A stretch of DNA of 15,603 bases from Staphylococcus phage PT1028: the sequence record AY954948.1. One strand, written 5' to 3'. The first letter of the stretch is position 1. Each line of letters starts with the position of its first letter. Below, piece by piece: positions 4,599 through 5,396 of this stretch. Made by a program: the position numbers and the translations under genes. The notes under the pieces were generated by a model that saw nothing but the letters and a program-made list of their open reading frames with translations, was not told the DNA's origin and made no database searches.

Positions 4599-5396
4599 TT
4601 AGTCAATCTTAATGTTAGTAAATTCTTCAAGGATTTTTTTATCTAATTTCTCTAGAGTGCTATTATCAACCTTCATTTTTCCAGAAGGATCATATTTATT
4701 TATTCTGCGAACCTTAAGTTTACTTATAGAATGAAGTGATTTATAGCATGCAAAAGTTTGTTTGTCGTATTTTGAATATTTGAGGTAAACTTTTTCAATC
4801 ATATTCTTATTATTTTCAATTTCTTTTGATAATTTTTCTTCGGATTTTATATTTACTTTTAATTCTTCTATATTTTTCTCTAAATCACTTATGGTAATCT
4901 CTGTATCACTATTTTTATCTCTTATTGCGTTTATACCTTCTTTAGTACTTTTGTACAGTTCTTTGTATTCGGATTGCAATTTTTCTATTTTTGAGGTGAT
5001 TTTGCTAATGTTTTTTTGGCAATCGTCTAATGATTGTTTAAGTCTATTACTAGCATTTTCAAATACAGTTTTATCTATTGAGAGATAATATTTTTTATCC
5101 TTAGAAGATAAAGGGATAACGTTAAGCATACTACTCTTTTTGTTATCGTTTTTATTTAAAACAATAGCAAAATGTCCACCAGAAATTTCACTTCCCACAT
5201 TAATTCCAAAATCGACATAAATTATTGTTCCCCGTTTGTAGCTATTATATGTATTGCTAATTTTTCCGTTATATTCTTTGAATAACCAATTAGACTTTGA
5301 TCGATGCCAATATGGTAATCCTTTAAAACGGTCTTTACCAGAATCGAATAAAGTTTTGTATATATCATTCGCTTCATCAAACATTTCATATGACAT
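4599..5396 (-). CDS. MazF/PemK (Kid/ToxN)-fold putative endoribonuclease toxin domain fused to a C-terminal coiled-coil domain; candidate defence or abortive-infection protein
   Basis: 265 aa. Residues about 55-105, TIIYVDFGINVGSEISGGHFAIVLNKNDNKKSSMLNVIPLSSK, match the MazF core pattern (VDF..GSE..G.RPA.VL....VxPxT) and the ToxN/AbiQ YIPLSSK strand. The C-terminal half is rich in K/E heptad-like sequence. It starts 23 nt after the int stop on the same strand. There is no adjacent antitoxin ORF. Confidence 0.6.
   Translation of the reverse strand: MSYEMFDEANDIYKTLFDSGKDRFKGLPYWHRSKSNWLFKEYNGKISNTYNSYKRGTIIYVDFGINVGSEISGGHFAIVLNKNDNKKSSMLNVIPLSSKDKKYYLSIDKTVFENASNRLKQSLDDCQKNISKITSKIEKLQSEYKELYKSTKEGINAIRDKNSDTEITISDLEKNIEELKVNIKSEEKLSKEIENNKNMIEKVYLKYSKYDKQTFACYKSLHSISKLKVRRINKYDPSGKMKVDNSTLEKLDKKILEEFTNIKID

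Follow-up and report, generated by a model that had tools for sequence, protein, structure and literature searches.

The MazF-like gene beside int in the staphylococcal island SaPIpT1028, very likely sma, and the predicted toxin barrel with a coiled-coil insert that it encodes

Sma is a single-protein anti-phage system described as MazF-like, carried by the staphylococcal pathogenicity island (SaPI) SaPIpT1028, expressed constitutively in lysogeny, from the integrated island, and acting on non-helper phages (brief mention in PMC12409344). Similarly brief mentions in PMC12829572 and PMC12948488 give the same description, and in all three papers the system is attributed to Fillol-Salom et al. 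2022. Here we describe the MazF-like gene of sequence record AY954948.1 (Staphylococcus phage PT1028; 15,603 nucleotides, the whole of which is called the window), an open reading frame (ORF) singled out by an earlier note on this DNA and confirmed here (positions 4599-5396, minus strand, 265 residues). It agrees with the published Sma in the island that carries it, in being a single MazF-like protein without an antitoxin and in being a lysogeny-side gene next to int, with no known difference between the two; we consider it very likely to be sma, and use this name for it below.

Four other groups of described systems resemble this locus in part. Canonical toxins of the MazF/PemK/Kid/EndoA type (PF02452; PDB entries 4MZM, 1NE8, 4MDX and 1M1F) have an adjacent MazE/PemI antitoxin gene, which is absent at sma and at its homologs (at sma, int lies upstream and a terminator downstream); Sma is more than twice their size, adds an N-terminal hairpin of 50 residues and an insertion of ~100 residues, and has a His in place of the catalytic Arg. 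The proteins of PHROG 1412, also named 'PemK domain phage protein' (pneumococcal and staphylococcal prophages), belong to the same family and occupy the same position in the lysogeny module, but are shorter (about 205-255 residues) and have shorter inserts. ToxIN/AbiQ are likewise endoribonucleases of the Kid/MazF superfold serving abortive infection, but depend on an RNA antitoxin encoded upstream in tandem repeats, of which sma has none. The closest working analogy, drawn as an analogy and not as a claim of family membership, would be CapRel(SJ46): one polypeptide combining a toxic enzyme with a variable module presumed to restrain it in cis and to sense a phage protein, encoded in the lysogeny region of a prophage. 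Its toxin fold is unrelated (a RelA/SpoT-like tRNA pyrophosphokinase, compared to the MazF barrel), and for the insert of Sma a role in cis is presumed.

Identity of the island and family of its MazF-like gene

The window can be assigned with confidence to SaPIpT1028, of which it is a circular permutation. All nine island-internal primers among the amplification and check primers for SaPIpT1028 (Table S3 of PMC10530653) matched the window with 0 mismatches (Table 1), and the chromosomal primers pT1028-YAC-frag1-F and pT1028-31mB matched, with 0-1 mismatch, the rpsR-side flank of three islands integrated in S. aureus chromosomes (L001-L003). Primers 31mB and 4cBg together evidently serve to check the junction at the left attachment site (attL), and therefore the ORF in which 4cBg falls is the first gene of SaPIpT1028. 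The order in L001-L003 is rpsF-ssb-rpsR (convergent), sma, int, a helix-turn-helix repressor gene and then the remainder of the island; sma is thus the outermost island gene, with attL, in the 3' end of rpsR, on one side and int, which shares its strand, on the other, as the int-proximal location proposed earlier had it. The window and L001 are identical from the 3' end of sma, through two hairpins, to the core of the attachment site (att), and then diverge; because the other end of the island adjoins the att core leftward, the window represents a circular permutation of the complete 15.6-kb island.

Pfam scans found no second MazF-like protein among the other 20 sizeable ORFs of the island, and the ORF is taken to be sma because it is the only MazF-like gene on SaPIpT1028. 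The earlier note had presented it as an undescribed toxin; this cannot be maintained, given the match of the SaPIpT1028 primers and the publication of the MazF-like gene of this island as Sma. The gene is almost certainly already known, so that our analysis has found it a second time and adds some structural detail to it. The insertion topology, the replacement of Arg by His, the N-terminal hairpin, the family size and the mislabelling described below are absent from the brief mentions of Sma in the citing papers, and the primary 2022 paper may hold them.

The Pfam scan matched the ORF to PF02452 (PemK_toxin) with 34.3 bits (E 2.9e-8; the curated cut-off is 23.1 bits), a match limited to residues 54-117, which correspond to model positions 1-66 of 109; PHROG 1412 covers the whole ORF (E 4e-67). 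The protein encoded in the window is the commonest allele (P0070, on 818 contigs), and an identical protein is named 'type II toxin-antitoxin system PemK/MazF family toxin' by NCBI. A PADLOC v2 scan returned coiled-coil noise only (LmuB, JetC), a model for Sma being apparently not included, and Megablast of positions 4000-7000 gave no match in a collection of phage records without SaPIs.

The family is large. At E <= 1e-10, 872 clusters (50% identity) were retrieved by an exhaustive profile search, with few exceptions full-length and of 200-330 residues, and tblastn found the gene in 110 records of phages and satellites (62 Staphylococcus, 48 Streptococcus), at ~30% identity, most of those listed having it at most about 1-2.5 kb from the genome end. 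In prophages and satellites of staphylococci, streptococci and enterococci, the homologs sit in lysogeny modules: in S. saprophyticus islands int is followed after 5 nt by the sma-type gene and then by rpsR; in an E. faecalis prophage a stand-alone gene lies between int and lysin; and in the S. aureus phage SapYZUs7 and the streptococcal satellite Javan359 the gene is flanked by those of the repressor and int and shares their strand. PHROG 1412 bears the label 'antitoxin mazE-like', which is also found in the RefSeq phage records NC_024357, NC_031929 and NC_022758, whose annotations derive from PHROGs. By sequence and predicted fold the family is on the toxin (MazF) side, and the antitoxin label is a propagating misannotation; both this label and the NCBI name 'type II TA toxin' misdescribe a family of ~870 clusters. 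Two S. saprophyticus islands at the rpsR site (L008, L011) have two family members flanking int (2913-3617 and 5001-5840): the upstream paralog is phage-type (234 residues; 37% identical to SapYZUs7 orf2 and 28% to Sma), and the downstream member is Sma-type (279 residues).

Architecture and conservation of the predicted barrel

The structural model points to one complete MazF barrel, split into residues 51-109 and 209-262, to which an N-terminal hairpin and an insert of ~100 residues are added. The AlphaFold2 model (mean pLDDT, the predicted local distance difference test, 89.9; pTM, the predicted template modelling score, 0.77) represents allele P0001, whose one difference from the window protein is I155T, at the tip of the inserted hairpin. 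In a Foldseek search its target-normalised TM score was 0.78 to S. aureus MazF and to YdcE, 108 of the 118 residues of MazF9 superposed on it at 2.5 A, and its structural neighbours were exclusively of the ribonuclease (RNase) type. In the family profile, MazF residues 62-106 align with ORF residues ~209-250, and the 'TISK' motif (S225 and the invariant K226) aligns to 'TIDKQRL' of the solved MazF/MoxT. Both the complete MazF barrel and the C-terminal helix of canonical toxins were thus found by superposition and profile alignment.

The coiled coil is read as an insertion because the same barrel takes its last two beta-strands and its terminal helix from residues 209-262, and because short homologs without the insert keep both barrel halves: in an alignment of 49 homologs, relatives of ~170 residues without coiled coil retain the N-terminal portion as well as the final ~50 residues ('TFACYKSLHSISKLKV...GK...'). 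The N-terminal hairpin is found in long and short family members and has no counterpart in canonical MazF. The earlier note was right about the MazF fold, supported here by the PF02452 match above the cut-off and the predicted complete barrel, and about its motifs, all of which are present (IYVDFG, 59-64; GSE, 68-70; GGHFAIVL, 73-80; NVIPLSSK, 92-99); its division of the protein has to be redrawn. The MazF motifs had been placed in the N-terminal third, of which residues 1-50 form a separate helical hairpin, and the C-terminal ~135 residues had been called a coiled coil, which is confined to residues 110-208, since 209-262 belong to the barrel.

Conservation was scored in 140 diverse representatives. 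Five residues (H75, D84, P95, S98 and K226) are invariant in all 140, and seven more (G56, F63, G64, G68, E70, V93 and S225) are conserved in at least 90%. In pairwise comparison the long forms are on average 56% and 41% identical in the two barrel halves, 27% in the N-terminal hairpin and 18% in the insert, the most variable module, which falls into four length classes (8-9, 48-68, 81-112 and 123-149 residues). Compared to a Mammaliicoccus ortholog of 82% identity, the barrel halves differ by 5% and 12%, the insert by 26% and the N-terminus by 24%. In nearly every member the barrel halves are basic (mean net charge +3.2 and +5.1); the insert has a mildly acidic character. Within S. aureus, variation among alleles is too small (single substitutions) for a test of diversifying selection.

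The catalytic Arg of MazF is R25 in B. subtilis and R29 in E. coli, and the second catalytic residue is T48/T52. When the family profile is aligned to MoxT, His75 occupies the position of the Arg in the 'GGVRPVLV' segment of canonical MazF. E70 is the counterpart of the Glu conserved in the G-S-E motif; S97 (Ser or Thr in the family) and the invariant S98, both in P-L-[ST]-S-K, would lie at about the segment of the catalytic Thr, which follows the third strand. By alignment, the family keeps a conserved constellation at the active-site positions of MazF, with His replacing Arg.

In the natural S. aureus alleles P0072, P0074 and P0081, the glycine of codon 56 (window positions 5229-5231) is replaced by Glu (G56E, at least 92 contigs) or by Arg (G56R). 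G56 is invariant in the 49-sequence alignment, and at least 90% conserved among the 140 representatives. These alleles may be loss-of-function variants; if so, they would hint at a cost of carrying sma.

The replacement of the catalytic Arg could also be read as a sign that the barrel is a binding module and not a nuclease (for example a CcdB-like poison of a host or phage enzyme, or an accessory factor of int), the coiled coil being its dimerisation or scaffolding arm. The MazF fold superfamily does include the non-nuclease CcdB, and the gene persistently adjoins int in islands and phages. We nevertheless find such a function improbable, given the invariant residues at the catalytic positions of MazF (His for Arg, Ser/Thr for Thr, the GSE glutamate), the exclusively RNase-type structural neighbours, the strongly basic core, as for a nucleic-acid binder, and the E. 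faecalis gene, which is separate from int in a transcription unit of its own.

Proposed control of the toxin without an antitoxin gene

No partner that could act as an antitoxin was found around sma. There is no antitoxin-like ORF nearby; the Tandem Repeats Finder (minimum score 30) found no tandem repeat array, the nearest repeats being 2-copy chance repeats of 9-11 nt; Rfam gave no match in 3900-7000 at E <= 1; and the promoter-like matches were at the level of chance (21 found, 21.2 expected). The gene was also solitary in all the homolog contexts examined, and in this the earlier note, which had reported no antitoxin gene, is borne out. An antisense RNA or a small-ORF antitoxin was considered and rejected, promoter matches, antisense ones included, being at chance level. 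The overlapping ORFs 5222..5410(-), 4612..4734(+), 4891..5088(+) and 5254..5460(+) were without support as antitoxins. The only recognisable antitoxin of the island is TscA (Table 1).

In a rival reading, in line with the NCBI name, Sma would be a conventional type II toxin with its antitoxin gene elsewhere (host MazE, TscA, a small ORF or an antisense RNA), and would serve island addiction or stabilisation in place of phage defence; the island does encode an antitoxin, TscA, and S. aureus has a chromosomal mazEF. This is nonetheless quite improbable, because TscA has a toxin partner of its own, TscT, the gene stands alone in S. saprophyticus, in the E. faecalis prophage, in streptococcal satellites and in S. 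aureus phages, and an island that moves between strains cannot depend on a host-specific partner; the absence of repeat array, Rfam match and above-chance antisense promoter points the same way, and Sma is called a single-protein system in the brief mention of PMC12409344. The TscA/TscT pair lies in the regulatory/replication region of the island, and TscT homologs are also present in L001, L002 and L008-L011. Largely refuted, and hardly credible, is a ToxN/AbiQ-like type III toxin with an unrecognised RNA antitoxin: ToxN shares the Kid/MazF superfold, and the PL[ST]SK segment would, following the earlier note, resemble the active-site segment of ToxN/AbiQ, but this resemblance found no support, no sequence or structure match to ToxN ranked above MazF, and neither a tandem repeat array near sma nor an Rfam RNA was found in the searches described above.

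The explanation we favour is that of a defence toxin restrained in cis. The basic MazF core would be an endoribonuclease using His75 in place of the canonical Arg, with E70, S97/S98 and S225/K226 as the other likely active-site residues. Sma would be held inactive in cis (by the N-terminal hairpin or the inserted arm) or by its oligomeric state, without a separate antitoxin; a phage product would be sensed by the coiled-coil hairpin, perhaps with help from the N-terminal helices, and would lift this restraint, and the activated toxin would cleave RNA, aborting the infection. Since no antitoxin exists, Sma would have to be silent in cells that are not infected, and its restraint is therefore proposed to be intrinsic. 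Among the modules, the insert is the foremost candidate for determining specificity, as its sequence changes fastest and its length varies; it cannot be the sole restraint, since about one fifth of the aligned members are without it. The N-terminal hairpin, present in all forms, is for that reason the better candidate for a universal cis-inhibitor.

Several points weigh against this explanation. The catalytic Arg in the G-x-R-P segment of canonical MazF is absent; the lack of the insert in about one fifth of the aligned members means that it is not essential for basic control of the toxin; and the identification of the ORF as sma rests on elimination, not on direct comparison with the published Sma sequence. 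Helix 1 as a conserved acidic, MazE-like mimic of RNA had to be rejected, its net charge being negative in only 29% of the 49 aligned members, although members of the SaPI clade have -2 to -4. That Sma cleaves RNA, inhibits itself and senses phage through the insert is itself what we infer. Taken as a whole (the fold, the identity with Sma, and a His-based defence RNase restrained in cis), the explanation still appears likely to us. A broader generalisation can be offered tentatively, and is rather doubtful: Sma-type proteins of Bacillota prophages and satellites might constitute a clade of their own within the MazF superfamily, one that does without antitoxins, with His-based catalysis and with specificity and self-restraint placed in the hypervariable coiled-coil insert, aided by the N-terminal helices.

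Surroundings of the gene, other island features and significance

The arrangement reported earlier, with int 23 nt upstream of the gene and a terminator downstream, is correct (Table 1). Co-transcription of sma with int is plausible, since the gap is short and holds no terminator-like site, and since only 5 nt separate the two genes in the S. saprophyticus orthologs. An alternative start at Met5 (261 residues; window positions 5382-5396) is used in some database entries and in the Mammaliicoccus ortholog; Met1 is the favoured candidate here because of the distance of the GGGG run, 9-12 nt, from the first ATG. The terminator-like hairpin which the island supplies to the rpsF-ssb-rpsR operon would shield sma from antisense read-through.

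Table 1 Positions of the features of the SaPIpT1028 window (AY954948.1) and of the matching island-internal primers.
Feature	Position	Strand	Remarks
Probable sma ORF (MazF-like single-protein toxin)	4599..5396	-	265 aa, ATG to stop; primer pT1028-4cBg inside
N-terminal two-helix hairpin (predicted)	5247..5396	-	residues 1-50 (H2-18, H27-42); conserved LPxW motif
MazF barrel, first half (predicted)	5070..5246	-	residues 51-109; strands 57-62, 74-79, 90-97, 104-107
Antiparallel coiled-coil hairpin (predicted)	4773..5069	-	residues 110-208 (H110-158, H163-208); inserted in barrel loop
MazF barrel, second half (predicted)	4602..4772	-	residues 209-265; strands 214-217, 222-225; helix 245-260
int-sma spacer	5397..5419	-	23 nt; GGGG Shine-Dalgarno-like run 9-12 nt 5' of ATG; no terminator
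Tyrosine integrase (int) of the island	5420..6634	-	directly upstream of sma, 23 nt apart
Intrinsic-terminator-like hairpin with T-run	4494..4515	-	84 nt past the sma stop codon
Terminator-like hairpin, island-supplied	4388..4415	+	follows rpsR when integrated; back-to-back with the sma terminator
att core AAAGAAGAACAATAATAGATATT	4356..4378	.	overlaps last codons and stop of rpsR (taa, 4368-4370)
TscA antitoxin	8453-8662	+	PF23767, E 1e-33; only recognisable antitoxin of the island
TscT toxin	8665-8991	+	PF07342, E 2e-46; paired with TscA
Rcm (orf7)-like ORF	27..680	+	217 aa; R21, YELN and FGL motifs
pT1028-frag1-R	9093-9123		primer match
pT1028-frag2-F	8944-8963		primer match
pT1028-frag2-R	14966-14985		primer match
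pT1028-frag3-F	14902-14926		primer match
orf007-pT1028-2c	51-71		primer match, in ORF 27..680
SaPIn130-mS	8599-8619		primer match
SaPIn1-102m	10377-10397		primer match
SaPIbov1-ORF10-1mB	14647-14667		primer match
pT1028-4cBg	4729-4750		primer match, inside the sma ORF

Other parts of the island also yielded observations. The ORF at 27..680 fits the published Rcm, the capsid-size redirection factor of SaPIpT1028, also by its position before the pti-like genes and terS. Among the plus-strand ORFs at 12337-12846, 12981-13820, 13747-14079 and 14081-14722, two share a near-identical N-terminus of 32 residues, which differs at two positions (MNIETIVNQFETRA[G/A]TLLRYYTGLLEHSKVQP); the 'SAPI' protein domain PF16560 is full in the second of these two only, and a Prim-Pol gene and an ORF of 110 residues lie between them. 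The region looks like a cassette insertion with partial duplication of the target. The Prim-Pol gene would be a second primase-type gene of the island, besides pri (9047-9925). The 3' accessory region encodes a protein of 170 residues (3325-3837, plus strand) whose N-terminus resembles a signal peptide and whose C-terminal tail is rich in glycine (…GGAGTGGLGGASAAS…GGVSGGATGAAASCFG), followed by a very hydrophobic ORF of 59 residues (3853-4032, plus strand); neither has a Pfam match, and the pair looks like a bacteriocin with its immunity protein.

The discovery value of the gene itself is low, as it is catalogued as the anti-phage system Sma (FS_Sma) and detected by DefenseFinder. What is useful is the identification of the window as SaPIpT1028, the placement of sma at attL, and the corrected architecture, which offers mutational targets: H75, S98, K226, the insert (110-208) and the N-terminal hairpin. 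With these targets, the questions of how a MazF without an antitoxin stays silent, and of what Sma senses, can be approached. If the broader generalisation given above is true, Sma-type proteins would represent a cis-regulated 'sensor-in-a-loop' design, which for MazF toxins we did not find described in the accessible literature.
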